Source: a virus (Duplodnaviria; Caudoviricetes). Taken from it: a stretch of DNA of 64,000 bases. Under the pieces are notes generated by a model that was not told where the DNA came from, did not search any database, and saw only the letters and a list, made by a program, of their open reading frames with translations. A program made the translations under genes and the position numbers. Shown here one piece after another: positions 12,376 to 63,251 of this stretch; within the stretch, counting starts at the first letter, position 1; the number at the start of each line of letters is the position of its first letter. The stretch spans positions 64,001 to 128,000 of the IMG/VR virus record IMGVR_UViG_3300042275_000327, one strand, 5' to 3'.

Positions 12376-13440
12376 TTACACAGAAAAATAGTTTTTATTA
12401 TAATCCTGAGACTCTATAAGTTCTGACTCATCTAACAAAAATTCTGTTGATTCTTTTGCTGTCTCTATAGCATTCTTAATTGTATCTAATGAATTTTCTG
12501 GAGATCCTGGATCACCATCTTCTAATCTAGCTATCCAATAAGGCTTTTCCATAAAATCATCAAATTCTTTTATCATCAATCTACCTGCAGAATCAGTGTC
12601 AGAAAAGATGATCACATGTTCAAATTCTTTTAGCTGTTCTTTCTGTCGAGGAGTAAGATTTATTCCAAATGTTGTTGTAATATTCTTAGTAATATTTTGC
12701 CATATCCTAGGCATATCCATGATTCCTTCCACAACAATCAAAGGTTCTTTCTTATTAAGATTATGATAATTGAATAAAGAAGAAACTGATCCACCTTTAG
12801 GATACAATACTTTTGGCTTTGCTCTCTTTGTGAAGTCTCTTCCCTCAATAGAAATCAGATCTGATCCTTCATAGATAGGAATGCAAATTCTATTTCTAAA
12901 TTTTGTAAACTCTAGATATGGATCTCTGAAAGAATCTTTGAAAGCTCTACAAATTTCAACACTAGTACAATAGCCTATCTCAAAAGTTTCTAGAAATTCT
13001 TCTGTTAGAAATCTCTCTTTTATATAGTCATTTGCTAATTGATTCTTTGAAAAATCATAAAGTATTTTTCCACCTCTGATTCTCAGTTCTTTCTCAAGAG
13101 ACTTTAGTTCTCTGACTTTCTCATCTTTAGAAAAATAGGTCTTATCAACGATTCCTTTTTTATCCATCTCAAGATATTTGATAAGAGAAGTTCCTGTGCA
13201 TCTATAAAAGAAATAAGAAAAAGAACCACTAGCATCTCCTCCAAAGTCTTTGCATACTAGAGAATTCTTATAGAGTACTGCTGATGGATTCTTGTCTTCT
13301 CTAAATGGAGAAGAGAATAAGAAATAAGATCCTTTATCTGTAATATTTTTTGCTCCACATTCTAAAAGAAGAGACTGGACTGGGGTAATCTGATTGATGA
13401 TGTCATAGGTCAGTGTTTTTTCTAATTCTCTATAATTCAT
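12376..13440 (-). CDS. DNA primase (DnaG-type, Toprim)
   Basis: SPFREDKNPS, RICIPI, EGR, VVEGIMD, DTDSAG, DPG. Confidence 0.85.
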   Translation of the reverse strand: MNYRELEKTLTYDIINQITPVQSLLLECGAKNITDKGSYFLFSSPFREDKNPSAVLYKNSLVCKDFGGDASGSFSYFFYRCTGTSLIKYLEMDKKGIVDKTYFSKDEKVRELKSLEKELRIRGGKILYDFSKNQLANDYIKERFLTEEFLETFEIGYCTSVEICRAFKDSFRDPYLEFTKFRNRICIPIYEGSDLISIEGRDFTKRAKPKVLYPKGGSVSSLFNYHNLNKKEPLIVVEGIMDMPRIWQNITKNITTTFGINLTPRQKEQLKEFEHVIIFSDTDSAGRLMIKEFDDFMEKPYWIARLEDGDPGSPENSLDTIKNAIETAKESTEFLLDESELIESQDYNKNYFSV

Positions 13441-13445
13441 ATTAT

Positions 13446-13988
13446 CTAGTCTACAAAAACTGTAGTGCTATTTATTCCTATAATCTCATTATCATAAATA
13501 TTCACTTTGAATCCTTCTTTTGTCTCAAATCTTGTATATCTAGCTGAGGATTCTTTTAGAAGCTGATCTGAATAATTTTCTCTTACATATTTCAAAAGCA
13601 AATTCTGTACCTCTACAAAAACTCTGACATCAGAATCATATTTCTTATAATGAGGAACAGGACTATATCCAAGAACAGTAACAACAAAAGCATGATTCTT
13701 TCCATCATCATAGATTCTATCTCTTCTCCAGTCAATCACAAGTCCTAAACCAGAGCCTTTAGAATAGATGACATAGTGACCTTTTTCATCATTATAATTT
13801 TTCATTATCTGATGCATTGTCTGAGCAATCATTAATTTATGTTTGTCTACATAAGCTTTTCTATTAGGAAAAATCCCTTGAATTGCTTTTTCTCTTTCAT
13901 AAGATCTCTCTATAGCATGATCAGTATCAGTCATAAAACGATCTCTATATCTAGCAAATGGCTTGTTTTCTTTCAGTAGAATTCTCAT
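13446..13988 (-). CDS. Hypothetical protein with THA.ER..ER motif (possible RelE/DUF4258-like fold)
   Basis: TDHAIERSYER...FVVTV; probable start MRILLKE at 13988 (TAATG overlap). Confidence 0.45.
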   Translation of the reverse strand: MRILLKENKPFARYRDRFMTDTDHAIERSYEREKAIQGIFPNRKAYVDKHKLMIAQTMHQIMKNYNDEKGHYVIYSKGSGLGLVIDWRRDRIYDDGKNHAFVVTVLGYSPVPHYKKYDSDVRVFVEVQNLLLKYVRENYSDQLLKESSARYTRFETKEGFKVNIYDNEIIGINSTTVFVD

Positions 13989-14173
13989 TATTCTTTTATT
14001 CTCCATATAGACAAAAATTCTTCAGCATTAGTAGAAAGATGATTTTTCCTGTTAACTGAAACTTGTATTCTTTCTACTTCTTCAAATTTTTCTCTTATTA
14101 AGAGTATACTCATATCTTCTAAAAATTTTCTAGATTTTTCTTCAAGTTCAGACCAAAGTATTTTCGTATACAA
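13988..14173 (-). CDS. Small hypothetical protein
   Basis: 61-aa ORF; stop overlaps next start; start codon uncertain. Confidence 0.35.
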   Translation of the reverse strand: MYTKILWSELEEKSRKFLEDMSILLIREKFEEVERIQVSVNRKNHLSTNAEEFLSIWRIKE

Positions 14174-14206
14174 AAAAGTCCCTGAATTTTACTTCAGGGA
14201 CTAAAA
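14172..14206 (-). terminator. Intrinsic terminator downstream of major capsid gene
   Basis: agtccctgaa/ttcagggact inverted repeat followed by a T tract on the minus strand. Confidence 0.8.
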
Positions 14207-14220
14207 CTTTAGAGAAAAAC

Positions 14221-15642
14221 TTAGATGTTAGTAAGCTTGATTCTCTGGAGATAGTTAGGTTGAAGAACCTTAGCATCACCAAAGTAAGCAAGACCAGTTT
14301 CTTTATACATCTCTTTGAACTCAAGTGTCTGAGTCTGATAAAGTGGGATCAAACTGCCAAAACTCACGGATACGTCTTCCGGAACTAATTCGTTCTTATA
14401 GATAGCCATGATCTCATCATTAGGAACAATAGAAGCAGGAACCTTGTAAACATCGATTCCATCCAATGTACCTTCACGATAAGCACCAACTTTTGGCTGT
14501 CTGCTAGAAACATCAAACCGTCTGTGAAGCTTGATCTGAGTGATAGCTCCAGGTCCACCAACCAACTTAGTGACTCCGCCTCTCTGTAGAGAATTATAGA
14601 TCAAGTCAGAAGCTTGGTCAATAGCCTTGTTGAAAGCTGTCATACGATCAATCTCAGGCTCACCAACAGCACCCTGAACATTGAAAGTTACAGGAGCATG
14701 TCCCTTTGCACTCTGGTAAGCTAGACGAATAGCATGGAAGTCAAGAGACTTCTTGAACTCATCAGCAGCACCACGAATAAGAGCATCTTCTGCGTCAATA
14801 TTGAGAGTAGTGTTAACCAACACTTCAGTCATCTTAGACCAGCTGACATACAACGGCCAAGGTTTTACTCTGAACTGATAGTCTCTAAGTTGCAACTCAA
14901 CTGAACCAATATCAGTGTAGTTGTTAGAAACTTCAGAATCATAGTGGTATTCAAGAGAAATAAGTCCACCAGAAGCAGGAGCAGCTGTGAAAGTAACAGT
15001 GTATTCACCAGTGGTGTAGTTGATAGTGTTAGTCCCAGAGGAATTGAGAAGAGCACCAGAAAGATTTCCAGCACCATCATCAGTAGCAATAGGAACATCA
15101 TCAACTAACAGTCTTACAGTATAAGGTCTGATAGGAGCATTGAGCAAGGTGTTGTCAAAAGCAACAGTAGAACCATCACCAGTACCAACAGTGTCAACCT
15201 CAATTTCAGAACCATACCTAAAAGCAGGTGATTCATGCATAACACCACCAGCAGTAGCACCACGTTTTGAAGCCTGATAAACAGGAGACAAGTAGTAAAT
15301 ACTATCTCTTGCAGTTTCCATAGCCCATTCTAAGAACAAGTCACCACGTACACTATTAGGATATCCAAGACGAACAATTCTCATCACATTTTCAGGAGTA
15401 GTTGCAAAGCTGTTAGAGATCTGAGTCTCAGTCAACTTACCAAGGTGATTCTCCTGGTTCTCAAGAATAATAGAAAGAGCACGTGCTTTGTTGACGTCCT
15501 TTTCCATGATCTTATCCATGTTCTCGCCGATCCCAGTTTTCTTTGACCACTTCTCAAAGAGCCGATCAGCATTTTCATTTCTCTGAGAGAGCATTTCATC
15601 TCTTTGCTCTTTCAGGATTGCTTCACGCATTTCTTTACGCAT
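14221..15642 (-). CDS. Major capsid protein (T4 gp23-like, HK97 fold) with beta-rich insertion
   Basis: ILENQE, IVRLGYPN, IYYL, GTLDG.DVYK patterns; start revised to ATG 15642 after AGAAGGA; strong terminator downstream. Confidence 0.9.
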   Translation of the reverse strand: MRKEMREAILKEQRDEMLSQRNENADRLFEKWSKKTGIGENMDKIMEKDVNKARALSIILENQENHLGKLTETQISNSFATTPENVMRIVRLGYPNSVRGDLFLEWAMETARDSIYYLSPVYQASKRGATAGGVMHESPAFRYGSEIEVDTVGTGDGSTVAFDNTLLNAPIRPYTVRLLVDDVPIATDDGAGNLSGALLNSSGTNTINYTTGEYTVTFTAAPASGGLISLEYHYDSEVSNNYTDIGSVELQLRDYQFRVKPWPLYVSWSKMTEVLVNTTLNIDAEDALIRGAADEFKKSLDFHAIRLAYQSAKGHAPVTFNVQGAVGEPEIDRMTAFNKAIDQASDLIYNSLQRGGVTKLVGGPGAITQIKLHRRFDVSSRQPKVGAYREGTLDGIDVYKVPASIVPNDEIMAIYKNELVPEDVSVSFGSLIPLYQTQTLEFKEMYKETGLAYFGDAKVLQPNYLQRIKLTNI

Positions 15643-15828
15643 ATTAAAATTCCTTCTTTTTGTAAACAAGATTTTGAGGGAGGGAACTTTAGAGGTATAT
15701 CTCATAAAATCTGTTTTCATGAGAAGAACTTTCAATATTTCATCTTTCATTTATGAACAGAGAAATAAAAAATATCCCTTACATATATAATAGTAAGGGA
15801 CAATTTAAAAACCTGTTTTTCACAAATT

Positions 15829-16680
15829 CTATACTATTCCGAATCCTGTTTTCTTTTTTAGATATAGAAAAGCCTTCTCTATCAGAGACTTAATATAAAT
15901 TCTATAAGCAAGCTCTGTCAATTCAGAAAAATTCACTCTTCTATTTCTATTAAAAGCTTTTTCTAAAGCTTCATCAAAATATATCTTTGGATTGAACTTT
16001 GATTCAAAAAACCATTTTTCAATATCATTAATCTTGGACACAGAGAAATCTTCTTCATTGTATTCTTCTGGATCAAAAGACATCTCTATGTCAAGAAGAT
16101 CAGGATCGTCAGATACAAGAATGTAGTCCCCACGAAGAATTCTTTCTTCTATTATCTTATATGCATTATACTGACAATCAGTTAGAACATAATTAGGAAG
16201 ACCAGACTCTGGCTTATATGACATCAGAGCTTTCTTTACTGCTTTCAGGTAATCAGTTTCACTTCGAAAAGTTTTTTCTTCTTTGTAGATAGAGATCTTG
16301 TCTCCTTTCTCAATTATGAAAATACCTTCTTTCTGTCTTACTGGAAAATCATCAGAAACAACTAGACTATCTATGGCATCAGAAATAATCTCTTCTGTCT
16401 CTTTTGTTCCTTCTTTTGCAGAGGAATATTCTTCAGGATCTATATCAAAAAGTAATCTTTGAAATTCATGAACATGAACCTTTTCTTCTTGAGAAGTGTG
16501 ACTGAAAAGCTTTCCAATAACAGAAGAATCTTTACCTAACAAATTCGCTATTCTATTATAAAGATTGATAGCACTTTGCTCTGCTGAAATTCCTATTCTA
16601 AGAAAATCTTCAGCAGTAGCGTTATCTAGATCTAACTCAGTTATGGCTTGTAAAACAGACTCATAAAGATTCTTTTTCAT
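15829..16680 (-). CDS. Ferritin/rubrerythrin-like domain plus LEKGD tag plus C-terminal domain
   Basis: EQSAINLY...EEKVHVHE di-iron-type motif; RQKEGIFIIEKGDKISIYKE. Confidence 0.7.
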   Translation of the reverse strand: MKKNLYESVLQAITELDLDNATAEDFLRIGISAEQSAINLYNRIANLLGKDSSVIGKLFSHTSQEEKVHVHEFQRLLFDIDPEEYSSAKEGTKETEEIISDAIDSLVVSDDFPVRQKEGIFIIEKGDKISIYKEEKTFRSETDYLKAVKKALMSYKPESGLPNYVLTDCQYNAYKIIEERILRGDYILVSDDPDLLDIEMSFDPEEYNEEDFSVSKINDIEKWFFESKFNPKIYFDEALEKAFNRNRRVNFSELTELAYRIYIKSLIEKAFLYLKKKTGFGIV

Positions 16681-16777
16681 TTTATTTCCTATACTTCATA
16701 AAGACATTTTTCATTGCTGATTTAGAATCATTCTCTCTTGTATATCTATTTTTCTCATGGTCTTTTTTATAGTCCTT

Positions 16778-17347
16778 TTATAAATAGTGCTTTTTTATAG
16801 AATTTGAAAAGTTAAAAAATAACTTATAAAGATCTATAGGAGATAGATTATTATTTGGTCCATAAACATCTAATAAATATGAAAGAGATTTTTGAACTTG
16901 CAAAGAATCTATAAATCTATATTTGAACTCATCAAAAAATTTATCAAGATCTCTATCTTGAGGACCTTTCATCTGTCCTATATATTCTTTTAGATCTTTT
17001 TCTAAAACTTGAATCTTATCACCCTTCTCCAAAATGATTTTCTTTCCATCTTGTTCAATTACTACTTCTTCTTGAATTTCAATTATAGAATCATGTATAG
17101 AGAAGCTTTCTTCTTTAATTCCAAAATTTTTTTGAATAGAATCCCAGATATCTTTATGCTGCTTTTTCAACTTTGTATAGATAGGTCTATCACCTGTTTT
17201 TCCACTCTTTAAAGTAGAAGCCACCTTTTCAAAATCTTCAGGTGAGACAAAAGAGTAGCTACTCATCCAAGACCCTTCATCTTCTCCGTTATATTTAATT
17301 TTTTTAGAATCTCTAGCAGTATAGATTCCAGGTTTAAATTGATCCAT
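16778..17347 (-). CDS. LEKGD-tag protein
   Basis: IIEIQEEVVIEQDGKKIILEKGDKIQVLE between two unrelated short domains; AACTATT upstream. Confidence 0.7.
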   Translation of the reverse strand: MDQFKPGIYTARDSKKIKYNGEDEGSWMSSYSFVSPEDFEKVASTLKSGKTGDRPIYTKLKKQHKDIWDSIQKNFGIKEESFSIHDSIIEIQEEVVIEQDGKKIILEKGDKIQVLEKDLKEYIGQMKGPQDRDLDKFFDEFKYRFIDSLQVQKSLSYLLDVYGPNNNLSPIDLYKLFFNFSNSIKKHYL

Positions 17348-17385
17348 TATGATCTCCTTTTTAGATTACAGTATGAGTTATATAT

Positions 17386-17859
17386 TTAAATAGTTATAAT
17401 CTTCTCAATAACTTCTCGAACACATCCCTTTCCACTTTCCAAATTTGTTCTCTTGACTCTTTCAAAATCTTTATTTACATACAGATCAATAATAGAGTTT
17501 TTTGGACAATAAGAAATTCCAGCTTCGAGAAGACACTGAAGATCAGAAAAGTCATCCCCAATATAAGCTGCTTCAGACCAAGAGAGATTTTTAGACTTCA
17601 AAAACTCAGAGATAGTGATGAACTTATCCTCTGAGTTTAGGAAATGGTCAATCTTTAATTTTATTGCTCTTTCTAGATGAGTCTGACAATTTTTCTCTTT
17701 AGTAATCCATACAGTTAGAATTCCTTTTTCTTTTAGTCTTGAAAAACCTTCTCCATCTATCTTAGAATACTGGATCATTGAATCACCAGAAGTACTCATG
17801 TAGATGTTTCCATCTGTCAATGTTCCATCAATGTCACAAATAAGAACTTTTATTTTCAA
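17386..17859 (-). CDS. KdsC/YrbI-type HAD phosphatase (KDO-8-P/KDN-9-P/NeuAc-9-P phosphatase-like)
   Basis: DIDGTLTDG, YIGDDFSD, GKGCVRE. Confidence 0.85.
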   Translation of the reverse strand: MKIKVLICDIDGTLTDGNIYMSTSGDSMIQYSKIDGEGFSRLKEKGILTVWITKEKNCQTHLERAIKLKIDHFLNSEDKFITISEFLKSKNLSWSEAAYIGDDFSDLQCLLEAGISYCPKNSIIDLYVNKDFERVKRTNLESGKGCVREVIEKIITI

Positions 17860-18539
17860 AATATACTCCTCATGATAGACTCTATTATTCTGAAGTCTTC
17901 TTCTGTATCAATCTCCAGAATAGTCTCTTTTGACATCTCAAAGATTCCACAAGGAGGAATAATCCTACATTTGCTATTTCTCCAAGACTGAATAGAATTA
18001 TAATAGAACATTCCATTTTCTACTAAATATTCTTTCTTGATCTTTAGATCTTGTCTTCTACTTCTGTTGAGAGGATTATAGTTTTTTGGAAGCCCTGTTC
18101 TATCCCAGATAAATCTATCTGACATACTCACAACAGACAAAGAGGATTCTTCAGGAGTAACTTTAGCATAGTTGATAAACTCATCAACATCTTCAGAAGT
18201 TACAATAGGAGAAGTGAGCTGTGCTAAAAGAATAGATCCTTCTAATTGAGGATTAGATTCTAGAAATTCAATAACAGCAGATTCTGTGGAGGAATCATCA
18301 CTAGAGTTCTCTTTTGACCTGTAAACAATCTCAGCTTTAGGGCAGTATGTTCTGACAAGCTTAGCATATTCATTAGAATCTGTAGAAACAATTACTCTAT
18401 CAATCTCTACTGACTCTAACAAAGCTGAGATCATCCAATAGAACAAAGGCATTGAGTTTATCTCTTTGATATTCTTATCAATAATTCCTTTACTGCCACT
18501 TCTCATAGGAACAAATGCAATCACTTTCTCTTTTGTCAT
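17856..18539 (-). CDS. neuA: CMP-nonulosonate synthetase (acylneuraminate cytidylyltransferase)
   Basis: PMRSGSKGIIDKN, VSTDS, QLTSP, ENGMFY, EIDTEED; start revised to 18539. Confidence 0.9.
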   Translation of the reverse strand: MTKEKVIAFVPMRSGSKGIIDKNIKEINSMPLFYWMISALLESVEIDRVIVSTDSNEYAKLVRTYCPKAEIVYRSKENSSDDSSTESAVIEFLESNPQLEGSILLAQLTSPIVTSEDVDEFINYAKVTPEESSLSVVSMSDRFIWDRTGLPKNYNPLNRSRRQDLKIKKEYLVENGMFYYNSIQSWRNSKCRIIPPCGIFEMSKETILEIDTEEDFRIIESIMRSIF

Positions 18540-19081
18540 CTTTTTACAAATCCCCAACTAGTGTCTTTGCCTAGAATCTCTGGTTCTCCAAGAACTTCTC
18601 TCACTGCTTTCATTGTTCCAGGAAAAGCTTCTTGAAAATCATGTCCTGCAATAATTCCTCCCTTTTTTACTTTTGGGAGCCAATTCAGGATATCTTTTTT
18701 AACATCTTCATATTGATGAACAGCATCTATATATACCATAGTAAGACTTTCATCCTCAAATAATTTACATGCTTCATCTCCAGTCATTTTCATCTTATGA
18801 ATATTGTCATATTTCTCTTTCATAGAATCAAATTGACTCTCAACAATATTCATATCATATTTATAACTAGAAGCATCAGAATCATCATAACCATTCATCC
18901 AAGGGTCAATAGCATAGACAATGAAGAAGTTATTAGAAAAAATCTCTGTAGAGTCTCCTACATAACATCCAATTTCTGCAATCTTATGAGTACAAAATAG
19001 AGAATTCCTCTGACACTCATTAATAAACTCTATCAATCCACTTTTTGCATTCTTTGCCTTTCTAATACTAATTTTTTCCAT
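18536..19081 (-). CDS. Class I SAM methyltransferase (Methyltransf_24-like)
   Basis: EIGCYVGDS, IDPW, YIDAVHQYE, GGIIAGHD. Confidence 0.85.
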   Translation of the reverse strand: MEKISIRKAKNAKSGLIEFINECQRNSLFCTHKIAEIGCYVGDSTEIFSNNFFIVYAIDPWMNGYDDSDASSYKYDMNIVESQFDSMKEKYDNIHKMKMTGDEACKLFEDESLTMVYIDAVHQYEDVKKDILNWLPKVKKGGIIAGHDFQEAFPGTMKAVREVLGEPEILGKDTSWGFVKR

Positions 19082-21206
19082 ATGCTACCTCTTCCATTTT
19101 TTTCTTACTGATAGGATCTATTGTTACTCTTGGATCTTTTGCAAAGTCTAGAATCAGTCTAGTATCTCTATATTTATCATGAAGACTAAGAGGTTTTCCA
19201 ATTCTATTTTTTCTCTGTCTTAGAGTAAATTCAGGAAGATAGCCTTCTATATATTCCTCATTTTTTCCATCAGTAATATCTGGAATATTAGCATAAGCAT
19301 CTACACCTGTAATAAAGAGACTCTTAATATCAAAGAATAAAAGATCATTGATAAGTCTTGTTCCAATAAATAATGTTGGACAAGGAATATCTTTGAGTCT
19401 GTTTGGAATATTTCTCCATCTAAATGGTAACTCTTCTTTTGGAATACTGTTCATGAGCTTACAAATATATTGAAGATCTCTCTTAGCCCATTCATTTGTT
19501 CTCCATTCATTGAAATCATCACGCTCATATGTAACATTGACATAGAGAACATCAGTTCTTGATCCAAAATCTTTCTCAAGAGAAGGATCAGAAATCAGTG
19601 AATTCAACATATTATTTGTTCTTACAACAATATCAAAAGAGTCTATAAACTCTCCTAGTTCTCTACCTTTTAGAATTGGAGATGGACCAACAAAGATAAC
19701 TTTCTTATTATAAAGAAAACTATAGAATTCATCCTCTGAAGAAGAATTTGGATATCTCTTAGAAAATTTAGAATCAATGTTGATGTAAAAAAGCCATGTA
19801 TCATCTCTATCAGATGTTAGTGGTTTTGTCTTTAGAAGTGTAATCAGTTTTCCACAAGTTGAAGACATATGATAAGAAACACCCTTACCATAAATAGATC
19901 CACCTGTTTCTGAGATATCTTGAATAAAAGATTTGAGCTCTTCTAATGAGAAAACCTTATCTTCTAAATTCTTATGTATGAGTCCCTTCTTTCTTTTTGA
20001 CTTAAGATTCCAAAGATCATAAACATCCTTATATATAACATCATTTCTTGACTCTTCCTGCCAAGGTTTTACTCCAACAAAATGTAGAAGAACAGAATCA
20101 TCATAGATATTCTTAAAACTCTTTGACAGGAACATTCTTTTTTCAACATTGAACTTCTTTGGAAGATAAGTCAAATAATTATTTTCTTTTAGAAAAAACA
20201 AGTTGATGATTTCTTGATCTGGGAGGTAGAATCCTTTAGAACAATAGGAAACAAGAGTATCATAGATAGAATAAGACAACATCTTTAAATCTAAAACCAT
20301 CACACCAGAATTTATCTCATTTGAAAGAATATCTTTTTGAGATTTATACTGTCGACAAGCCCCAAGAATCTTACTTTGAAGAGATATATAAGTCAGCTCT
20401 TCCAAAGAACCTCTTACAAGAATATCCATATCTACAAAGATGGCCCTCTCCATATAAGACTTATACAAAGAGGGATTGAAGAATTCTAATTTGTAGTATG
20501 TAGAAAGTAATCTTGATTCAGTTGATTCTATAGAAAAAGAATAAGACTCCTTACTAAAAGTCTTAAAGATGAGATTTGAATAAATATTCTTCATCTCTTC
20601 TTTAGTAGCATCACTGAGCCCATTATCAAGTATGATAAATGTGTAAGAAAAATCTGGATCAGTCTCTTTCAAAGATCGGAAAAACCCTTTAAATCCTAAG
20701 AAAAAATTATCATCCATCAGAGTTACAAAAACAGTCTCTCTTTTCTTTTCAGGATATCTGAGAAATAATTTTTTCTTTGAATCAAAACGAGAATCTTCTA
20801 GTATGCTATCATATTGCTTTTTAAAATTAGATCCTTCAAGAGAGTGATTCTGATAGATATCCTCTCCACCAAAATCAAATCCATACAAATAAATTTCATC
20901 ATAGTCTTCTAATAGAGCATCTAATATAGCCTGATTGCCAGAACTCCATCCTCTGTCTTCCTTAAATTGTGAGATCCCTGGCAAACCTTCTCTTCCTACT
21001 AGTATAATCTTATTACTCTCTATGAAGGATTCATCCTGGAAGCTCTGCAGTACCTCTGAGTGAACACTGTAAACTCTTTTAATAGTAGGAAATTTATTGA
21101 TCTCGTAGATACCTTTATTACAGACCCAAATCTCTTCAAACTCAGAGATCTCTTCTTCTAGATATTTTCTAGATATTCCATTCCCTACTATTGCAAGTTC
21201 TTTCAT
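19068..21206 (-). CDS. Three-domain glycosyltransferase: GT29/GT42-like, GT8, sialyltransferase (GT29-like)
   Basis: N: IVGNG..SSG..YLYGFDF; middle: FVDMD, NSGVMV, DQEIIN, HFVGVKPW; C: VGPS..LKG.ELG.FIDSFDIVVRTN (sialylmotif L-like). Confidence 0.8.
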   Translation of the reverse strand: MKELAIVGNGISRKYLEEEISEFEEIWVCNKGIYEINKFPTIKRVYSVHSEVLQSFQDESFIESNKIILVGREGLPGISQFKEDRGWSSGNQAILDALLEDYDEIYLYGFDFGGEDIYQNHSLEGSNFKKQYDSILEDSRFDSKKKLFLRYPEKKRETVFVTLMDDNFFLGFKGFFRSLKETDPDFSYTFIILDNGLSDATKEEMKNIYSNLIFKTFSKESYSFSIESTESRLLSTYYKLEFFNPSLYKSYMERAIFVDMDILVRGSLEELTYISLQSKILGACRQYKSQKDILSNEINSGVMVLDLKMLSYSIYDTLVSYCSKGFYLPDQEIINLFFLKENNYLTYLPKKFNVEKRMFLSKSFKNIYDDSVLLHFVGVKPWQEESRNDVIYKDVYDLWNLKSKRKKGLIHKNLEDKVFSLEELKSFIQDISETGGSIYGKGVSYHMSSTCGKLITLLKTKPLTSDRDDTWLFYINIDSKFSKRYPNSSSEDEFYSFLYNKKVIFVGPSPILKGRELGEFIDSFDIVVRTNNMLNSLISDPSLEKDFGSRTDVLYVNVTYERDDFNEWRTNEWAKRDLQYICKLMNSIPKEELPFRWRNIPNRLKDIPCPTLFIGTRLINDLLFFDIKSLFITGVDAYANIPDITDGKNEEYIEGYLPEFTLRQRKNRIGKPLSLHDKYRDTRLILDFAKDPRVTIDPISKKKMEEVAYGKN

Positions 21207-21712
21207 TTTGTCAGAACCTTATAAAGAAGATAGTCTTCAAAATCTAAAGTCTGATCTTCAGAAACAGGACTTTCAGAGAACTCATCTATGTAAGAATCAA
21301 ATTCTTTTCCTTTCACTGTTGTCTTCTTTCCTAGTGGATCTGTCACAAAAGCTCTTTTAGAGGTGATATCTAACTCTATTTTAGAACCATTCATCTTCTC
21401 TTTCTTTACAAAAGCCTTTATCTTCTTTGAACTTTCTTCTTCATTCATAGATTTCTTTACAAATTCAGTTGACTCGTAGAAATTCAAAAAAATCTTTTTG
21501 TATTGAGGAGCTATAGCAATCTTTTCCAAAAGCTTCTTTTCTGCTTTTCTGACCAGAAGATCAAAAGTATTATCTGATACAATAACATCTCCTGTATCTC
21601 CAAAAATAAGTTGATACTCAAAAGTCTCTTCTGAAAAAACAATCTGGTATACTCTGCTATCTGATTCTAGATATGGAACGTTGTCATAAGCTCTACTGAT
21701 ATGAAATGTCAT
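21203..21712 (-). CDS. Hypothetical protein heading the glycosylation operon
   Basis: 169 aa, GGAG RBS, AACTATT at 21744-21750. Confidence 0.6.
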   Translation of the reverse strand: MTFHISRAYDNVPYLESDSRVYQIVFSEETFEYQLIFGDTGDVIVSDNTFDLLVRKAEKKLLEKIAIAPQYKKIFLNFYESTEFVKKSMNEEESSKKIKAFVKKEKMNGSKIELDITSKRAFVTDPLGKKTTVKGKEFDSYIDEFSESPVSEDQTLDFEDYLLYKVLTK

Positions 21713-21750
21713 AATTATTCTCCTATTAAAATATTACTAATAAAATAGTT

Positions 21751-23619
21751 CTAGATTGCTGAAAGATTGAAAGCTCTACCTTCCAAGAAGTCCTTTCTAG
21801 AGCCACTCTCTCCACTGGACATCCACTCTTTTATTATCTTTTCACTATCTGATGTTCTCTCAAATTGTACAAGAAAATCTTCCATTGTACCAACTTTCTC
21901 AATAATCTTTTTTAGAACTTCTGGTTCAAAAGATCCTAATCCCTTGTAATAATCTATTCTATGAAATTTTGTTTTTGAACTCTTCATATAATCATCAATA
22001 TTAAAAAACCATTCTATGGGATCATCCTTCTTATTAAAAGCAACAAGAAGAGGTGTGTTCATAAAACATATCCTTCCATCCTCGATCATTTTAGGAGTAA
22101 ATTTATGGAAGAAAGTCAAGAGCAAAGATCTGATGTGGATCCCATCCATATCCTGGTCCGACAAAAAAACAACCTTATCATACTCCATATCTGTATTTTT
22201 ATCAAGAAGATCCAGGTTTAGAATATCTACAATATCCTTGAACTCTTTATTTTTGATCATTTTAGATACTGGAACATTGAAAGTATTCAATGGTTTTCCT
22301 CTAAGAGAATAGTAAGCAATGTCTCTTCTACCAAGAATATTCCACATTGAACTTGTTGCAGAATAACCTTCTGTAAGCATCAAATATTTCTTATCCCCAA
22401 TGGGAGGAAAATATGATTCACTAGAGACTTTCTTCTTAGAATTTGAAAGATTTTTCAGAGCTTGTTTCTTTTTGAATTCTTCTTTTAGCTTGAACATCTC
22501 AACAATAGGCTCTAGAATCAGTTCATTCTTTTGTAGTCTCTTAGTCATAGCAAGAAAATCATCATTAGAAAGATCAAGGTATTTTCTTATTTCAGCAACA
22601 GAATTTGTGAGAGTCTCTTTGGTCTGAGAATCAAATTGCATAGATGGAAAATCATTGAAGAAGACAACAATAGAAAGTTTATTCTTAATATCTCCAGGCT
22701 TGATGGTCTTGAATTTTTTTACTAAAAGATCTCTTAGCTTATAAGAAAACTCATTGGAAATAAGATCTACATGAGTTCCCCCTCTCTTTAAATAAAGACC
22801 ATTCACATAAGAGAAAAAAGAAAAGTCTTCTTCCTCATTAGGATAAATCCCTATGAACCATTTATCTCCTGTGAATAGCTCAAATGTTTCTGAAAACATA
22901 GACATAAATTGTTTTGAATTACCAATCGATACTCTCTTGTCATTAAAGTAAAACTTAATTTTTGGAAAGGAGTATGAAAGAAACAATATTCTCTGGTAGA
23001 TCATATTGATGTGATCTTTATCTATCTCAGACAATCCAAAACGCTCCAGGTCAGGCTGAAAATGTACTTTAGTATAATTACTTGAATTCTTTCTTATCGA
23101 GTGCTCTGTAGTCTCCATATTATCTTTGCAAGTCAGAGATAACTTATTCTTACCATCACTAGTCTCAGCTTCGAACAACTTGGAAAAAATATTAGTTGCT
23201 TTGATTCCAATTCCATGAGTACCAATAGAAGATGTTCCCTCATCTACTTTATCAAAATTACTTCCTGCTCTAGCATTACAAAATGCCATGATAGGCATAT
23301 ATTCTTTTGTCTCTTTAGATCTTGTTACAGGAATTCCTCTACCGTTGTCTTCAATTGTAACATCTTTTTCAGAAATTGAAATTCGTATTTTATTTCCGAA
23401 CTTAAAATTTGTCTTAACTGCTTCATCCAAAGAGTTATCAATTGCTTCATTGATGATCTTCAAAAGTGCAGGAACATACTTGACTTTTTCTTTTTGAAAT
23501 TTTCCATCTTTCAGTATCATCTCATCTGATTCAGAGAGTGACATTGATCCTAGATACATTCCAGGTAATAAAAGAATATGGCTTCTAGCATCTAATTCTT
23601 TAATAAGTGCTTGTTTCAT
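21751..23619 (-). CDS. Type II DNA topoisomerase ATPase/Toprim subunit (T4 gp39+60/GyrB-like)
   Basis: EAIDNSLDE, DNGRGIP, G.HGIG, LRGK.LN, DQDMDG.HI, YYKGLG. Confidence 0.92.
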   Translation of the reverse strand: MKQALIKELDARSHILLLPGMYLGSMSLSESDEMILKDGKFQKEKVKYVPALLKIINEAIDNSLDEAVKTNFKFGNKIRISISEKDVTIEDNGRGIPVTRSKETKEYMPIMAFCNARAGSNFDKVDEGTSSIGTHGIGIKATNIFSKLFEAETSDGKNKLSLTCKDNMETTEHSIRKNSSNYTKVHFQPDLERFGLSEIDKDHINMIYQRILFLSYSFPKIKFYFNDKRVSIGNSKQFMSMFSETFELFTGDKWFIGIYPNEEEDFSFFSYVNGLYLKRGGTHVDLISNEFSYKLRDLLVKKFKTIKPGDIKNKLSIVVFFNDFPSMQFDSQTKETLTNSVAEIRKYLDLSNDDFLAMTKRLQKNELILEPIVEMFKLKEEFKKKQALKNLSNSKKKVSSESYFPPIGDKKYLMLTEGYSATSSMWNILGRRDIAYYSLRGKPLNTFNVPVSKMIKNKEFKDIVDILNLDLLDKNTDMEYDKVVFLSDQDMDGIHIRSLLLTFFHKFTPKMIEDGRICFMNTPLLVAFNKKDDPIEWFFNIDDYMKSSKTKFHRIDYYKGLGSFEPEVLKKIIEKVGTMEDFLVQFERTSDSEKIIKEWMSSGESGSRKDFLEGRAFNLSAI

Positions 23620-23631
23620 CTTTACTCCAAT

Positions 23632-24249
23632 CTATACAATCGCATTTGAATAAATAGTAGTCAACTCATTCTTAGTTGATCTAATGAATTTATACACTTT
23701 CATATAATTCATTTTCATTCTTTCTGAGATATCTTTCACAGACACATCCTCCATATACATCTGAAGAATTTGTCTTTTCTTTTCTGGTTGCTCACTGACA
23801 TATTTTTGTACAATGCTTGATACAACTTTAGTTTTCAATTGATCATCAAAATCAATAGCTGTCTTGGAATTAAATGCTTTTTTCAATCCTGAGGTTGATT
23901 CATCTACTTCATCCTTCGATTCCATAGAGGAAAGATAGATTGGAATTCCCATGTGAGCAAGTTCTCTTTGATTTTTGTTCTTAATCTTCAGAAGAAAAAA
24001 ATAGAAGCTTGTTCCAAAATTGGACTCTGAATTTTCCATCTTTTCAAGATCAATGTATTCGATACAATCTATAAAAGAAAAGAAAGCTTCTTGTTTATAG
24101 TCCTCAAGAGAGAGTCCAATATCATTGAAGAATTTTGCATTCTTGAAAAAAGAAGAAGCTACTTTTGCTTGGTATTTTTCCCAAAGCAAATTTCTGATTT
24201 CAAGATCATTTTCATTTTTGATTCTTTTGAGCATTTCTAAGTCGGTCAT
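23632..24249 (-). CDS. Sigma-70-like RNA polymerase sigma factor
   Basis: Region-2-like EDYKQEAFFSF...F; C-terminal HTH SVKDISERMKMNYMKV. Confidence 0.65.
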   Translation of the reverse strand: MTDLEMLKRIKNENDLEIRNLLWEKYQAKVASSFFKNAKFFNDIGLSLEDYKQEAFFSFIDCIEYIDLEKMENSESNFGTSFYFFLLKIKNKNQRELAHMGIPIYLSSMESKDEVDESTSGLKKAFNSKTAIDFDDQLKTKVVSSIVQKYVSEQPEKKRQILQMYMEDVSVKDISERMKMNYMKVYKFIRSTKNELTTIYSNAIV

Positions 24250-24300
24250 ATTTGTCCTCCACAGCAGATTATATATTTAACTATATACTAGATCTTGAAA

Positions 24301-25605
24301 TTAGTAAACCAAAATTTTACATCTAGTCAAAACAGTTTGCTTTTGTTCTTTAAAGATTTCAAGATTTTTGATTGTCCCTTTAAGAGTAACATCCATTCCT
24401 TCATTCTTCAACTTTTCATTGTAAGCAATCATCTTCTCAACTAATTCCTGATAATCAAATTCTCCCTTTTTCTCTAGATCTTTGGATGCCATCTCTTCAG
24501 AGAGATCCTTTGAGGAGAACCATTTAGCAAGTCCTCTTTCTGTCTCAATCTGATAAAGATAAGTGATTCCATCTTGTCCATATCCATAATTTGTATTGAA
24601 ACTGTTGATAAGCTTTATGTTTCCTGTGATGGTTATCTTATCTTTGATCTCTCCAAGAAACTCTGAATTATTCTTGTCCTCTTTGACTAATGAATCTTTA
24701 ATTGCCATATTCAAAGCTTTCCAGAAAGCCCAGCAGACAATTCCAAGATTCTTTGAAGGAACCTTCATATTGAATTCTGAGTTTGAATAGAGATTAGAGA
24801 AGATATTGAATTCAAAATCATTTGTATAACCTTTTTTGATATCCCAGAACTTCTTGATTGTCTCAATCTGCTTCTCTACATTTTTGGAGTTTCTCTGAAT
24901 GTCTTTCCTAATTTCTTCTCTATTTCCTACACTGAAAATGATATTCTTAACAAGACTAGAAGTACCTTCTTCTCCTTTCTCCCAATTTCTTGAAAAATCA
25001 TTGGTTACACTACTGAGAATTCCTAAGACTTCTTTCACTGAGATGTAGCTATTAGAAGTGAAGAATCTATTTCTAAGGAGTTCTCTCTCTTCTTCATCTA
25101 GATCTGAAAAATCAAGTGTAGTCTCATTGATTCTGAGAGCTTTAGTCTCAGCTTCAAAAGCTCCGAGGATCCCCTCAAGAGGAATACCAAAATACTCAAG
25201 AACACAAGTTGATCCAATCTGCTTGATCTGTCCCTCATCCTCAAAGAAGAACCACTTCTTCCTATCCCTAGAAGTATGACAATGATCACAGACTGAGCCT
25301 TTTTTGTAGAGCTTATGAATATCATATCTGTCAGTATTTGAATAAATCATAGGAACTCCACTATTGTAAGATAGAGTTCCTAAAAATTCTACATTCTCTT
25401 TTCCATTAGTCTCAGGAATTTCAAGAAAGTATTCTACTACTGGAAAATTAACATTAACTGTAGCTGTCTCAAGAAGTTGAAAACCTTTTTTATGAGAGAT
25501 AACTCTAATCTCTGAATCATACTTCTGGAGTTTCTTATTCAGAGAAGTCATCTTCTTCTGAAACTTTTTGAGATCTTCTTCTAGAATTACAAGGTTCATA
25601 ATCAT
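24301..25605 (-). CDS. Conserved phage early protein with Zn-finger and C-terminal OB-like region
   Basis: CDHCH..R.RK...IGSTC; KGTIK....F...QTVLTRCK; early promoter upstream. Confidence 0.55.
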   Translation of the reverse strand: MIMNLVILEEDLKKFQKKMTSLNKKLQKYDSEIRVISHKKGFQLLETATVNVNFPVVEYFLEIPETNGKENVEFLGTLSYNSGVPMIYSNTDRYDIHKLYKKGSVCDHCHTSRDRKKWFFFEDEGQIKQIGSTCVLEYFGIPLEGILGAFEAETKALRINETTLDFSDLDEEERELLRNRFFTSNSYISVKEVLGILSSVTNDFSRNWEKGEEGTSSLVKNIIFSVGNREEIRKDIQRNSKNVEKQIETIKKFWDIKKGYTNDFEFNIFSNLYSNSEFNMKVPSKNLGIVCWAFWKALNMAIKDSLVKEDKNNSEFLGEIKDKITITGNIKLINSFNTNYGYGQDGITYLYQIETERGLAKWFSSKDLSEEMASKDLEKKGEFDYQELVEKMIAYNEKLKNEGMDVTLKGTIKNLEIFKEQKQTVLTRCKILVY

Positions 25606-52061: not shown

Positions 52062-52930
52062 GATCCTACAATAGATCAAATATTCTAAAAGAATGTACAT
52101 TATCATTATTAAAAAAATATAATTTTGAAGAATCCAAAATTTTCATTTTTGTAGGTGATATGAATCAACTGGAGGAATATCAAAAAGTAATAAAAGGATC
52201 ATATAATTTTGTTGTTGGAAAAGTTGGAATAGCAAATATTGATAACTTCATAACAGATTATTTTGATGAAGGTGAAAGAGTTATATGCTTAGATGATGAT
52301 ATCACAGGATTATTTGAAGTAGAAAAATATAAAGATCCAAAATCAAAAAGAGAAATTGTATCCATAGAAGAATATTTTGAGTATGGCTTTAATTCTTTAG
52401 ATAAATTAGGATTATACTGCTTTTCAATTAATGTTATAAGTAACTATCTTTTTCTTTCTAATTATCCTTTTGTTACTATTGGACCTCAAATGGTTCCTGG
52501 TTGTTGCTATGGAATAATAAATAGAAAGGATATAAGAATTACTTATAACCATTTGGATGATTCACAGAGAACTGCTCTTATACTTGAAAAAGACCAAAGT
52601 ATTTTGAAATTTACAAGAGCTACTTTAAAAGTGGATTATGGAAAGCTATCTGGTGGATTACAAAGCTCAGATATGAGAGGATCTAATTCTTTAGATAGAA
52701 AAAATAAGACATTAAGAATATGTGAAGAATTTAAGAAAGAAGAATTTGGAAAATTCTTTAAAGAACCAAAATTTGATGATAAATATAATCTATATCATAT
52801 AAGTCTTAATTCAATGTCATTTTTTAAGAAAAATTATGGTTGGAAAAGTCAGAAGTATTTTGAGTATTTTGAAAATATAGAAGAGGAAAGAGGGATTGAA
52901 AAACAAACAAAAAGATGTTCTCTATTCTAA
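52040..52930 (+). CDS. GT-A glycosyltransferase of the TET/JBP-associated (GREB1/J-glucosyltransferase-like) type
   Basis: VAIRSYNR, LDDDI, DD.QR, GGLQ. Confidence 0.65.
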   Translation: MQYKVAIRSYNRSNILKECTLSLLKKYNFEESKIFIFVGDMNQLEEYQKVIKGSYNFVVGKVGIANIDNFITDYFDEGERVICLDDDITGLFEVEKYKDPKSKREIVSIEEYFEYGFNSLDKLGLYCFSINVISNYLFLSNYPFVTIGPQMVPGCCYGIINRKDIRITYNHLDDSQRTALILEKDQSILKFTRATLKVDYGKLSGGLQSSDMRGSNSLDRKNKTLRICEEFKKEEFGKFFKEPKFDDKYNLYHISLNSMSFFKKNYGWKSQKYFEYFENIEEERGIEKQTKRCSLF

Positions 52931-53948
52931 TGTATCTGAAGAAAATATAAAATCAAGAGCTCCTATTTTTGATGAAAAGAATCTTTCTCTCCTATTTCAT
53001 TGGATAGAAGAAAGATATAAAATTCATAAAAAGAAAGATGTTCTAAAATTGGATTCTCCTTGGACAGATGATAAAATTCTTCAAGATTATAGATTTACAA
53101 ATGTTAGAAGAGAACACGACAGAGAAACAAAATGGTACATAGAACATATTGCTAAAAATAGCTCTTTGTCTATTGAAGACAAGATTTACAATACTTTTTT
53201 ATTCAGAGCATGGAATAAATCAAAAACTATGGAGATCCTTGGAGGACCTTGGAACTATCCTGATTTTATGGATAAGGAAAGGTATAGATCTGTAGTAGAA
53301 AGATACTCTACAGATCATCCTGAGTATGTCTGGTATACTGCAGCATTCAATTGTGGTGGATTGAAATCATCACAAAAGTTTCCAGATGGTGAAGGATATG
53401 CAAGAGCTCATAAAGAAGAAAAAGCAAAAATGGAAAAGGATTGGGAACAGTGTATTCCAATTCGTATGTTTCATATTCCTCCCCAGATGGAAAAGAAAGA
53501 TATTGTAAATAGAATTCTTAATTCTAAAGACCAACCTGAGTGTTTCAACATCATTCAGGAAGTCAGAGGATTCTCAACATTTCTTGCATATCAGGTTTTT
53601 GTAGATCTTACATATATAGAAGATTTTCCTTTTAGTGAGAATGAATTTACAGTATGTGGTCCAGGATGTAGAAGAGGAATTGATGAAGTAGTAAAAGACA
53701 GAAATGGATTATCTTATGAAGAGATTATCTTTTGGATTAGAGATAATCAAAAAAGTCTTTTTGAAAGATTTAATATAGATCCTATAGAATTATTTGATGA
53801 TCTTACTATATATGATAGATGTCTGAATGTAATGAGTCTAGAATCCTCATTTTGTGAAATATCAAAATATCTAAAAGCATATTATGAAACAGGAAGACCA
53901 AGGGTTAGATATAGAAGCTCTGAAGATTCTACTAAAAAATTGTTCTAA
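52896..53948 (+). CDS. 5-hmdU DNA kinase-like (aGPT-Pplase family) protein
   Basis: PWTDDKIL..YRFTNVRREHDR, F.AYQV..DL.Y, GPG..RGI, E..FCE..KY. Confidence 0.8.
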   Translation: MKNKQKDVLYSNVSEENIKSRAPIFDEKNLSLLFHWIEERYKIHKKKDVLKLDSPWTDDKILQDYRFTNVRREHDRETKWYIEHIAKNSSLSIEDKIYNTFLFRAWNKSKTMEILGGPWNYPDFMDKERYRSVVERYSTDHPEYVWYTAAFNCGGLKSSQKFPDGEGYARAHKEEKAKMEKDWEQCIPIRMFHIPPQMEKKDIVNRILNSKDQPECFNIIQEVRGFSTFLAYQVFVDLTYIEDFPFSENEFTVCGPGCRRGIDEVVKDRNGLSYEEIIFWIRDNQKSLFERFNIDPIELFDDLTIYDRCLNVMSLESSFCEISKYLKAYYETGRPRVRYRSSEDSTKKLF

Positions 53949-62406: not shown

Positions 62407-63251
62407 ATGAACCTGTCAAAATTATTGCTGAAGCGGGACTGAATCATAATGGAGATATTGACAAAGCAAAGAGATTAATTGATATTGCTTCTGTTGCAGG
62501 TTGTAACTATGTTAAGTTCCAAAAAAGAAATCCTGATCTATGTGTTCCAGAAGAGCAAAAGAATATTTCAAAAAAAGTCCCATGGCGAGAAGAGGAAACT
62601 ACTTATCTTCAGTACAAGAAAGATATTGAATTTTCAATTGATGAATATCAGTATCTTTACAATTATGCATTATCTAGAGGAATGATTCTTTTTGCTTCTA
62701 TTTGGGATATTGAATCTGCAGAAGAAATGAGTAAACTTACAGACATTGTAAAGATTCCTTCTGCTCTTGTGACTGATCTAGAACTTTTAGAATTCTGTAG
62801 TACAAAATTTGACTATAAGATATTAAGTACAGGAATGAGTTGGGAATCTGAAATAAGAGAAGCTGTCAAAATTTTTGGTCCTGATGTAATTATGCATACT
62901 GATTCTGAATATCCTTCAAAAGTAGAAAATCTGAGGTTAGAATATATAAAGCATCTAAACAAATTATATTACTCTACAGAAATTGGATATAGCAATCATT
63001 TTTATGGTCTTACACCATGTTTTGCTGCTGTGGCTCTTGGAGCAACTTGGATAGAAGTTCATATTTGTGAAGATCATAGAGATTGGGGAACTGATCAGTC
63101 TTCTAGTGTAGAGCCTGCAGGACTGATCAAACTTGTTAGAGGAATAAGAGATCTAGAACTTGCTTTGAAAGGAGATAGATTTAGAGAACCAACAGAGGCA
63201 GAACTTAAAAAAAGAAAAATTCTTAAAAATAATAAAAAAGGGGTTTACTAA
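62403..63251 (+). CDS. neuB: N-acetylneuraminate(-9-P)/nonulosonate synthase, no C-terminal SAF domain
   Basis: IIAEAGLNHNGD, VKFQKR, KIPSA, LSTGMS, H..S.YP, GYSNH, E.H, DQ.SS. Confidence 0.9.
   Translation: MNEPVKIIAEAGLNHNGDIDKAKRLIDIASVAGCNYVKFQKRNPDLCVPEEQKNISKKVPWREEETTYLQYKKDIEFSIDEYQYLYNYALSRGMILFASIWDIESAEEMSKLTDIVKIPSALVTDLELLEFCSTKFDYKILSTGMSWESEIREAVKIFGPDVIMHTDSEYPSKVENLRLEYIKHLNKLYYSTEIGYSNHFYGLTPCFAAVALGATWIEVHICEDHRDWGTDQSSSVEPAGLIKLVRGIRDLELALKGDRFREPTEAELKKRKILKNNKKGVY

Follow-up and report, generated by a model that had tools for sequence, protein, structure and literature searches.

Sialic acid–like sugars are familiar above all as components of animal cell surfaces and of the bacterial pathogens that mimic them, and in Bacteroides thetaiotaomicron the pathway to cytidine monophosphate (CMP)-activated ketodeoxynononic acid (Kdn) reportedly comprises BT1713–1715, with BT1714 as the Kdn-9-phosphate synthase. 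A NeuB-type synthase, a phosphatase, and a CMP-synthetase together constitute the phosphorylated route to such nonulosonic acids, which yields Kdn in this bacterium as well as in Prymnesium parvum, and N-acetylneuraminic acid (Neu5Ac) in animals (PMC6200933). Here, a candidate pathway of this type, combined with a three-domain glycosyltransferase, is described in an uncultured wastewater phage. Its genes lie in a stretch of 64,000 nucleotides (nt), hereafter the window, which represents positions 64001–128000 of one linear IMG/VR record of 147,626 bp (IMGVR_UViG_3300042275_000327). Five overlapping genes on the minus strand and a separate synthase gene on the plus strand make up the module, as follows.

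21203–21712, minus strand: acidic soluble protein of 169 amino acids (aa), first gene of the operon
19068–21206, minus strand: 712-aa three-domain glycosyltransferase with N, GT8, and C domains
20742–21206, minus strand: N domain (residues 1–155), Cst/Maf/MptE-like, with a predicted sialyltransferase-type fold
20055–20720, minus strand: GT8 domain (residues 163–384), Pfam PF01501
19071–19769, minus strand: C domain (residues 480–712), GT29/GT42-like
18536–19081, minus strand: 181-aa class I S-adenosylmethionine (SAM) methyltransferase (Methyltransf_24)
17856–18557, minus strand, with the likely start at ATG 18539: predicted CMP-nonulosonate synthetase, a NeuA/PseF-type cytidylyltransferase
17386–17859, minus strand: predicted sugar-acid phosphate phosphatase of the KdsC type, haloacid dehalogenase (HAD) class IIIA
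62403–63251, plus strand: short NeuB-family synthase of 282 aa

Like the CMP-Kdn pathways of B. thetaiotaomicron and P. parvum (PMC6200933) and the animal NANS/NANP/CMAS system, the phage module combines a NeuB-family synthase with a KdsC-type/HAD phosphatase and a CMP-synthetase, and like them it includes no UDP-GlcNAc 2-epimerase. Two further parallels are found in related loci: a cytidylyltransferase fused to a KdsC-type phosphatase in the same order as in vertebrate CMAS (418 aa; locus L004, 17592–18848), and a pairing of a short NeuB with the same type of phosphatase in a Bacteroidetes capsule locus (L082). In contrast to these established routes, the module is phage-encoded, none of its three enzymes comes near the respective equivalog cut-off, and its NeuB lacks the SAF/AFP domain and is encoded here at a distance from the other genes.

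For the transferase, the closest described proteins are soluble bacterial homologues of GT29 sialyltransferases, which have neither an anchor nor conserved disulfide cysteines (Petit et al. 2018, PMC5811610), and the GT42 enzymes Cst-I and Cst-II of Campylobacter jejuni. The phage protein resembles both groups in its solubility and in the absence of a transmembrane anchor and conserved disulfide cysteines, and its C domain shares with them a sialylmotif-L-like stretch, apparently a conserved His near the C terminus, and a predicted GT-A variant fold. It differs from them in that the C core of approximately 225 aa follows, in one fusion protein, a GT8 domain and another, minimal Cst/Maf-like domain of 155 aa, in that the Pfam GT29 match of the C domain is confined to the motif-L region, and in that the N domain lacks a conserved catalytic His. 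The best fold match of the N domain is to the Maf flagellin transferases (Magnetospirillum, PDB 5mu5; Z 10.8 with 150 residues aligned), whose transfer of a nonulosonate from its CMP donor directly onto protein in the cytoplasm is the mechanism proposed below. Maf proteins, however, are larger than 600 aa and carry flanking domains, the likeness consists of the fold and weak Pfam matches only, and no flagellin-like acceptor is evident in the phage.

Mycobacteriophages glycosylate their virions, and their glycosyltransferase genes adjoin structural genes. In common with the mycobacteriophage, giant-virus (PMC9614988), CroV ketodeoxyoctonic acid (Kdo), and myxoma virus systems, the phage carries its own sugar-nucleotide synthesis and transferases, and in its relatives methyl- and pyruvyltransferases accompany the module. 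None of these systems, in contrast, joins nonulosonate synthesis with sialyltransferase-fold enzymes in a phage. A 2022 review of giant-virus glycans mentions only a predicted Kdo pathway, in CroV, and the alpha-2,3-sialyltransferase of myxoma virus (PMC9614988), and full-text searches of the literature found no paper on a phage nonulosonate module. Judged by their sequence matches, all module enzymes belong to known families; new here are the three-domain fusion, the N domain as a widespread family of its own, and the position in the head-gene region.

Predicted Enzymes of Nonulosonate Synthesis

The original prediction proposed that the phage encodes a nonulosonate route of the synthase, phosphatase, and CMP-synthetase type, with a NeuB gene at 62403 and no NeuC epimerase in the window. 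Family matches, intact catalytic motifs, conserved synteny, and the NeuA–phosphatase fusion in a relative all sustain this assignment. The product of 62403–63251 matches PF03102 with an E value of 1.3e-52 (179 bits; cut-off 22.1), and E10, K38, Q40, K41, H199, and H220 vary little or not at all in 13 viral homologues. Against TIGR03569, the Neu5Ac synthase equivalog, it reaches 192 bits (cut-off 399.65), and the match stops at model position 277 of 329 in this protein without a SAF/AFP domain. Viral NeuB homologues are nearly all of similar length (267–305 aa), apart from two longer open reading frames (ORFs) of 377 and 487 aa. The gene overlaps the end of an NAD-dependent DNA ligase gene by 4 nt. 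Neither NeuC (PF02350) nor NanE was found in the entire 147,626-bp contig, which for NeuC extends the earlier observation beyond the window, and no enzyme supplying N-acetylmannosamine (ManNAc) or its 6-phosphate (ManNAc-6-P) was found in the contig or in the relatives examined.

The cytidylyltransferase, encoded by the only CTP_transf_3 gene in the contig, matches PF02348 with 85.6 bits (cut-off 22.6; E 5.6e-24), covering positions 1–197 of 217. Its best NCBIfam model is PseF, at 86 bits relative to a cut-off of 205.7, with the KdsB models scoring much lower. The phosphatase likewise stays below the family-specific cut-offs, both for the Kdn-9-phosphate phosphatase model NF058599 (92.3 bits; cut-off 180) and for the KdsC subfamily model TIGR01670 (85.5 bits; cut-off 106.95). 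Its residues 2–156 align with 3ewi, 3mn1, 4um5, and 3e81; the best PDB match is the C-terminal domain of mouse CMAS (3ewi), ahead of KdsC structures and of the B. thetaiotaomicron phosphatase KDN9PP (3e81). The HAD motifs DIDGT (DxDGT) and GDDFSD (GDDxxD) are present, the protein has the features of the HAD-IIIA C0 class, and D9, D11, G101, D102, and D103 are invariant among nine homologues.

The methyltransferase gene, which precedes the cytidylyltransferase gene in the operon, encodes a Methyltransf_24 protein (E 3.8e-14; 53.9 bits, cut-off 26.3) with the glycine-rich SAM motif EIGCYVGDS and with no PDB match by sequence. The gene follows the GT8-bearing gene directly in loci L002, L003, L006, L080, and L081 and is no more than 650 nt away from it in L004, L005, and L007, which supports the view that the methyltransferase always accompanies the GT8 part. 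The PHROG label “DNA methyltransferase” for the 181-aa protein finds no backing in the gene context. The first gene of the operon encodes a 169-aa protein that gave no match in Pfam, PHROG, or NCBIfam and no usable Atlas match; a weak C-terminal likeness (pairwise E 2e-4) connects it to an 86-aa ORF at the same position in L081.

A Three-Domain Transferase with Sialyltransferase-Like Domains

The 712-aa transferase is predicted to be soluble by hydropathy, and a search of 5.8 billion proteins returned only 15 relatives. Because their architectures mix N+GT8+C, N+C, GT8+C, and C+C arrangements, the three parts appear to be independent modules. The protein had been described as GT29-like/GT8/GT29-like, which holds for the GT8 and C domains. 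For the N domain it had to be given up, since this domain has no Pfam match, to GT29 or to any other family, and is Cst/Maf-like by profile and fold. The central domain matches PF01501 over residues 163–384 (E 7.3e-20; 72 bits, cut-off 24.3) and contains a DMD motif and, toward its C-terminal end, HFVGVKPW (HxxGxKPW). Its profile matches in the PDB are 3tzt, WbbM, LgtC, and glycogenin, and it is predicted to be a hexosyltransferase of the retaining type.

That the C domain is sialyltransferase-like, as originally suggested, is supported by both its sequence profile and its modeled fold. The Pfam GT29 match (28.6–29.7 bits; cut-off 23) spans residues 504–582 and profile positions 58–131, corresponding to the sialylmotif-L region and ending at motif L; the motif reads GxxG...ID..D.V.R.N. 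With a profile built from 37 family sequences from viral loci, 16 of 16 PDB matches at E < 0.001 are GT29 or GT42 sialyltransferases (best E 1.5e-9, to motif L of ST6Gal1), and the profile aligns end to end with Cst-II (19–212 versus 2–205) and with ST8SiaIII (23–204). The AlphaFold 2 (AF2) model has a pLDDT of 87, and its Foldseek matches at E < 0.0025 are all sialyltransferases, headed by ST8SiaIII (3e-7); the fold match extends over approximately 230 columns at a TM score of about 0.5. H676 and Y656 are nearly invariant. Neither a hydrophobic segment that could act as a type II anchor in the domain nor a conserved Cys in the family alignment was found.

The N domain, by profile and by model, appears to form a minimal Cst/Maf-like family of its own, GT42-like rather than a second GT29 domain. 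An exhaustive HMMER search yielded 104 representatives at E < 1e-3, many of which are stand-alone proteins of 150–200 aa or tandem pairs. The only significant PDB matches of the family profile are Cst-I/II and the P. multocida sialyltransferase (E 1.6e-7 to 9e-5; 1.6e-7 to 8e-5 for Cst-I/II), in an alignment of the 155-aa domain that skips Cst residues ~40–75 and the C-terminal part. Among 41 family members, Pfam assigns four to PF06002 (CST-I) and eight to MptE-like. The AF2 model has a pLDDT of 95, and in the fold comparison (VIA Z) Maf is followed by the MptE HPPK (10.5) and by Cst-I (9.6). Fifteen matches fall between Z 8 and 10.8, after which the scores drop to 5.5; the group comprises Maf, MptE, thiamin pyrophosphokinase (TPK), and sialyltransferases.

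Conservation of the Module in Other Viruses

Searches of IMG/VR with the family alignment found 74 viral loci with a C-like domain, some of them in metagenome-assembled genomes (MAGs) of giant viruses, whereas the single transferase sequence as query gave none; a separate search of genome contigs with the single NeuB protein gave three loci. NeuB, NeuA, or a KdsC-type phosphatase is encoded within 10 kb of the C-like domain in 37 of the 74. Two contigs are true relatives of the phage, with major capsid proteins 55%–58% identical to its own, and have kept the module.

The complete set, NeuB included, is found side by side in L080 and L081. The order in L081 is topoisomerase II, a small ORF, the N/GT8/C transferase, methyltransferase, MurB-like protein, pyruvyl transferase, NeuA, phosphatase, NeuB, and ligase; in L080 it is GT8/C, methyltransferase, NeuA, N, phosphatase, and NeuB. 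Since NeuB is contiguous with the operon in relatives, its distant position in the window probably reflects a rearrangement rather than a separate role. In addition to the fusion of cytidylyltransferase and phosphatase, a fusion of GT8 with Methyltransf_24 exists (430 aa; L003, 9989–11281), and together the two fusions indicate that the parts of the module are tied to one another.

L080 (CAYZJM010000011.1) and L081 (CAYZJM010000005.1) carry the label of a “Candidatus Woesearchaeota archaeon” MAG and encode a phage topoisomerase II and an NAD-dependent ligase. These proteins and the glycan module are 44%–67% identical to those of the window phage. An archaeal host was considered and rejected, a bacterial-type ligase and a sigma-like gene being present, and the two are most likely phage contigs mis-binned into the archaeal MAG.

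Related modules contain further genes for polysaccharide pyruvyl transferases, two Sulfotransfer_2 proteins, additional SAM methyltransferases, and a MurB-like reductase (L003, 11918–13015; L004, 13119–17567; L081, 3198–4780). These sequences suggest pyruvylated or lactylated, sulfated, and methylated glycans; with pyruvyl transferases, sulfotransferases, and further methyltransferases added in relatives, the glycan would be variably decorated.

Operon Layout and a Promoter-Like Motif

The five minus-strand genes, for the 169-aa protein, the transferase, the methyltransferase, the cytidylyltransferase, and the phosphatase, overlap successively by 4, 14, 22, and 4 nt, and the 22-nt overlap, which assumes the listed TTG start of the cytidylyltransferase gene, shrinks to 4 nt with the in-frame ATG at 18539. 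The original prediction placed them downstream of an AACTATT motif at 21744. The gene calls stand, but the bare 7-mer is not enriched, with 18 copies in place of the 20 expected. An extended motif, AACTATTWWAHWA, has 14 copies in the genome as compared with 1.7 in shuffled sequences, nearly always 12–58 nt upstream of an ORF start on the same strand, and the genes that it precedes include the head protease gene, the gene that opens the operon, and the one immediately beyond the operon. A looser form, ACTATTWWAHW, which would have covered the capsid and ferritin-like genes, was not enriched (19 versus 17 in shuffles), and those sites were dropped. The elements relevant to the transcription of the operon are as follows.

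21738–21750, minus strand: promoter-like 13-mer AACTATTTTATTA, which immediately follows the stop codon of the topoisomerase gene, with the ATG of the operon's leading gene 25 nt downstream
17383–17395, minus strand: second copy of the 13-mer, AACTATTTAAATA, overlapping the phosphatase stop codon, upstream of the gene for the 189-aa EKGDKI-module protein
14177–14202, minus strand: best intrinsic-terminator-like hairpin, a 10-bp stem with a T run, just past the capsid gene and downstream of the operon

A promoter function of AACTATTWWAHWA, and the timing that it would confer, are suggested by these positions, and the motif, common to the operon, the head protease gene, and other genes, is the basis on which late expression of the operon is proposed. 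Sigma-70-type promoters and generic terminators occur at chance level in the region. The four terminator-like sites within 13800–24400 equal the chance expectation, and the other minus-strand ones lie inside the glycosyltransferase and topoisomerase genes. Because the best terminator lies past the capsid gene, transcription might read through from the operon into that gene. Two genes upstream of the operon, a protein weakly resembling sigma-70 is encoded (23632–24249, minus strand; region 4 E 7.8e-4, PHROG sigma factor 7e-4), and it may be the protein that reads the AACTATTWWAHWA motif. A sigma-70 region-2-like ORF (L003, 8421–9068) lies directly upstream of NeuB in the relative G001.

A Model for the Module

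Based on these data, we assign a probability of roughly 0.7 to a model in which the genes specify a phage-encoded, fully soluble module that makes a CMP-activated nonulosonic sugar and transfers it within a short, decorated glycan. The NeuB lacking the SAF domain would use phosphoenolpyruvate (PEP) and a host 6-phospho-hexose, most likely mannose 6-phosphate (Man-6-P), to form Kdn-9-phosphate; the KdsC-type phosphatase would strip the 9-phosphate, and the cytidylyltransferase would then yield the CMP-sugar. The three-domain enzyme may act as an assembly line, with the following presumed order of transfer steps: the GT8 domain would add an alpha-hexose from a UDP-sugar, the C domain would add the nonulosonate from the CMP donor, and the N domain would add or position a further residue or bind the donor. 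The product would be methylated by the SAM methyltransferase. Expression of the operon would be driven by the phage-specific promoter-like motif, which also stands before the head protease gene and other genes of the head region, with read-through to the capsid gene.

Several observations weigh against this model or parts of it. At the level of the enzymes, the families are secure and the substrate specificities are not, because every equivalog-level score lies far below its cut-off, and the absences in the contig are not final because the record is only ~86% complete as estimated by CheckV. In the N-domain family, no invariant or nearly invariant His was found among 41 members, and the domain may not be a transferase because its fold is common to pyrophosphokinases (MptE, TPK). 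No acceptor stood out among the phage genes, and the module is not always a neighbor of the capsid gene, lying far from it in the relative G003. As to expression, a motif of the AACTATTWWAHWA type is not evident at the module in relatives, and a search of sequencing runs found no RNA run among those containing the stretch that could bear on the timing class of the motif.

Function of the N Domain

It is possible, at clearly less than even odds, that the N domain is no glycosyltransferase but an MptE/TPK-like accessory or a non-catalytic module that binds the donor or acceptor, which would leave the enzyme with two transfer activities. The MptE HPPK, SteA, and thiamin pyrophosphokinases match its fold no less well than sialyltransferases do, twice as many family members match the MptE-like Pfam family as CST-I, and the family is without a conserved His, whereas in Cst-II the catalytic general base is His188 and the full-size catalytic domain comprises approximately 260 aa. 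In favor of a transferase are the profile, whose significant PDB matches are exclusively sialyltransferases, the top fold match, Maf, which is itself a nonulosonate transferase, and the association of the domain with NeuA, NeuB, and phosphatase genes. Asn30 and an S/T-G motif, the counterparts of donor-binding residues in Cst-II, are conserved as well.

Acceptor of the Glycan

All module proteins are predicted from hydropathy to be soluble, with no membrane-anchoring segment, and a search of the contig for membrane glycan-export functions turned up neither Bac_transf nor Wzy_C, with every ORF having fewer than three strongly hydrophobic segments. Soluble proteins and the lack of export machinery imply that the acceptor either resides in the cytoplasm or is a lipid-linked intermediate made and exported by the host. 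A virion protein is preferred as the acceptor, if only tentatively. The operon lies between the sigma-like gene and the capsid gene, may be transcribed onward into the latter, and has its motif in common with the head protease gene; in the relative G001, the module likewise follows a sigma-like ORF, and by coordinates the capsid gene lies approximately 7 kb further on the same strand. The N domain, moreover, has its best fold match in Maf, a protein nonulosonyl transferase. The more specific proposal, that a virion protein is coated with a methylated, Kdn-capped oligosaccharide by a cytoplasmic assembly line in which the N domain serves as a Maf-like protein O-nonulosonyl transferase, is doubtful as a whole. 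If true, it would describe the first phage particle of a sialylated type and would imply that microbial viruses commonly decorate their particles by means of soluble relatives of animal sialyltransferases.

Also rather unlikely is a host lipid-linked surface glycan, exported by the host itself, as the acceptor. The corresponding explanation of the module is a remodeling of the host surface, of equally limited probability: soluble transferases at the inner face of the membrane would act, as Cst-II and LgtC do, on host lipid-linked intermediates of lipooligosaccharide (LOS), lipopolysaccharide (LPS), or capsule, and host flippases and ligases would display the nonulosonate-capped glycan, so that superinfection is blocked or progeny are kept from sticking to debris. 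The nearest solved relatives (Cst-I/II, LgtC, and WbbM) act on LOS or O-antigen, the nearest cellular NeuB–phosphatase pair is part of a capsule locus, and the pyruvyl- and sulfotransferases of relatives are typical of polysaccharide decoration; a phage without export genes would, in addition, need those of its host. On the other hand, the operon is situated among head-region genes, with a motif that also precedes the head protease gene, rather than in a module of early or lysogeny genes, and none of the module proteins has a membrane-anchoring segment. The genome has the look of a large lytic phage that brings a replication apparatus of its own, and remodeling late in a lytic cycle would have little time to act.

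Identity of the Sugar

We consider Kdn to be the sugar at about even odds. It is favored by the absence of a ManNAc-supplying enzyme and by the residue corresponding to Glu56 of B. thetaiotaomicron KDN9PP, which is Glu in the phage phosphatase and in the closest homologues from viruses and Bacteroidetes but Arg in KdsC enzymes. Glu56 is reported to have a role in the specificity of the B. thetaiotaomicron Kdn-9-phosphate phosphatase. The pairing of a short NeuB with this phosphatase type in the Bacteroidetes capsule locus and the prevalence of SAF-less NeuB proteins in viruses also bear on the choice. Neu5Ac or a derivative is an unlikely product, and some other sugar is about equally unlikely. 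The corresponding alternative, of the same low standing, is a true sialic acid or another nonulosonate, with the short NeuB acting on host ManNAc-6-P from NanK/NanE-type metabolism or on an unphosphorylated sugar, and the HAD protein acting on Neu5Ac-9-phosphate as in animals. The best NCBIfam matches, a Neu5Ac synthase model for NeuB and PseF for the cytidylyltransferase, agree with it, as does the best PDB match of the phosphatase, which belongs to mouse CMP-Neu5Ac synthetase. Human NANS, which accepts both ManNAc-6-P and Man-6-P (PMC6200933), offers a precedent. Against it, all of these scores are far below the equivalog cut-offs, and neither the contig nor the related loci that were examined encode a NeuC, NanE, or other amino-sugar enzyme, whereas Man-6-P is present in any host without extra genes.

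Least probable by far is that the module modifies phage DNA or another non-protein molecule of the cytoplasm by extending a sugar on hydroxymethyluracil from the thymidine-hypermodification cluster at 46.5–54.5 kb, for although the phage has a 5-hydroxymethyldeoxyuridine (5-hmdU) DNA kinase-like gene (PF18723), the plus-strand NeuB gene adjoins the DNA ligase gene downstream of this cluster, and all module enzymes are cytoplasmic, NeuB is contiguous with the transferase operon in relatives, where the ligase merely flanks it, the 37 viral loci with transferase and nonulosonate genes contain no match to the kinase-like protein within 10 kb, and we know of no GT8 or sialyltransferase-fold enzyme that acts on DNA.

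A self-contained soluble pathway in phages and in some giant-virus MAGs suggests that viruses of microbes may use acidic nine-carbon sugars, possibly for masking the particle, for avoiding adsorption to debris, or for changing the host surface. More generally, the viral proteins add a branch to the debated origin of GT29 enzymes, and the three-domain fusion and its split forms offer a natural experiment on which activities cooperate. Glyco-engineering could also draw on the small, soluble enzymes with a sialyltransferase fold and no anchor, and on synthases without a SAF domain, as tools.

Genomic Surroundings and Occurrence

The window has a G+C content of ~32%, and the record further contains genes for a portal, a head protease, and a complete set of replication proteins. 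The capsid protein gene (14221–15750, minus strand) has a best GenBank phage match that is ~27% identical, and it lies between replication genes, with the primase gene (12376–13440, minus strand) downstream and topoisomerase, dUTPase, and polymerase genes upstream; head and replication genes are interleaved in this genome and do not form separate modules. The 5-hmdU DNA kinase helical domain (E 4.8e-67) occurs in an ORF at 52896–53948 on the plus strand and covers 4–275 of 281 profile positions. Directly upstream of the HK97-type capsid gene, a 283-aa protein (15829–16680, minus strand) has an N-terminal rubrerythrin/EncB-like ferritin domain (Pfam 2.2e-6; NCBIfam EncB_fam 2.7e-10, below the cut-off), and this protein shares an EKGDKI stretch with the 189-aa protein encoded at 16778–17347.

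In comparisons with GenBank phages, neither megablast of the region nor tblastn with the whole transferase or its C domain gave a match, and NeuB matched three records only, none of them from a cultured phage. In addition to the run that is its probable source, two wastewater runs of different studies contained the stretch at half or more of its sampled words, and smaller shares were detected in subsurface and oil-field runs. Contig pieces identical to the stretch were assembled from three wastewater runs. In three independent wastewater runs, contigs break at 16030, 16459, and 17865, with the same unlike continuation at each position, which hints at co-occurring strains that have the capsid gene in common but not the borders of the ferritin-like gene and the glycan module.

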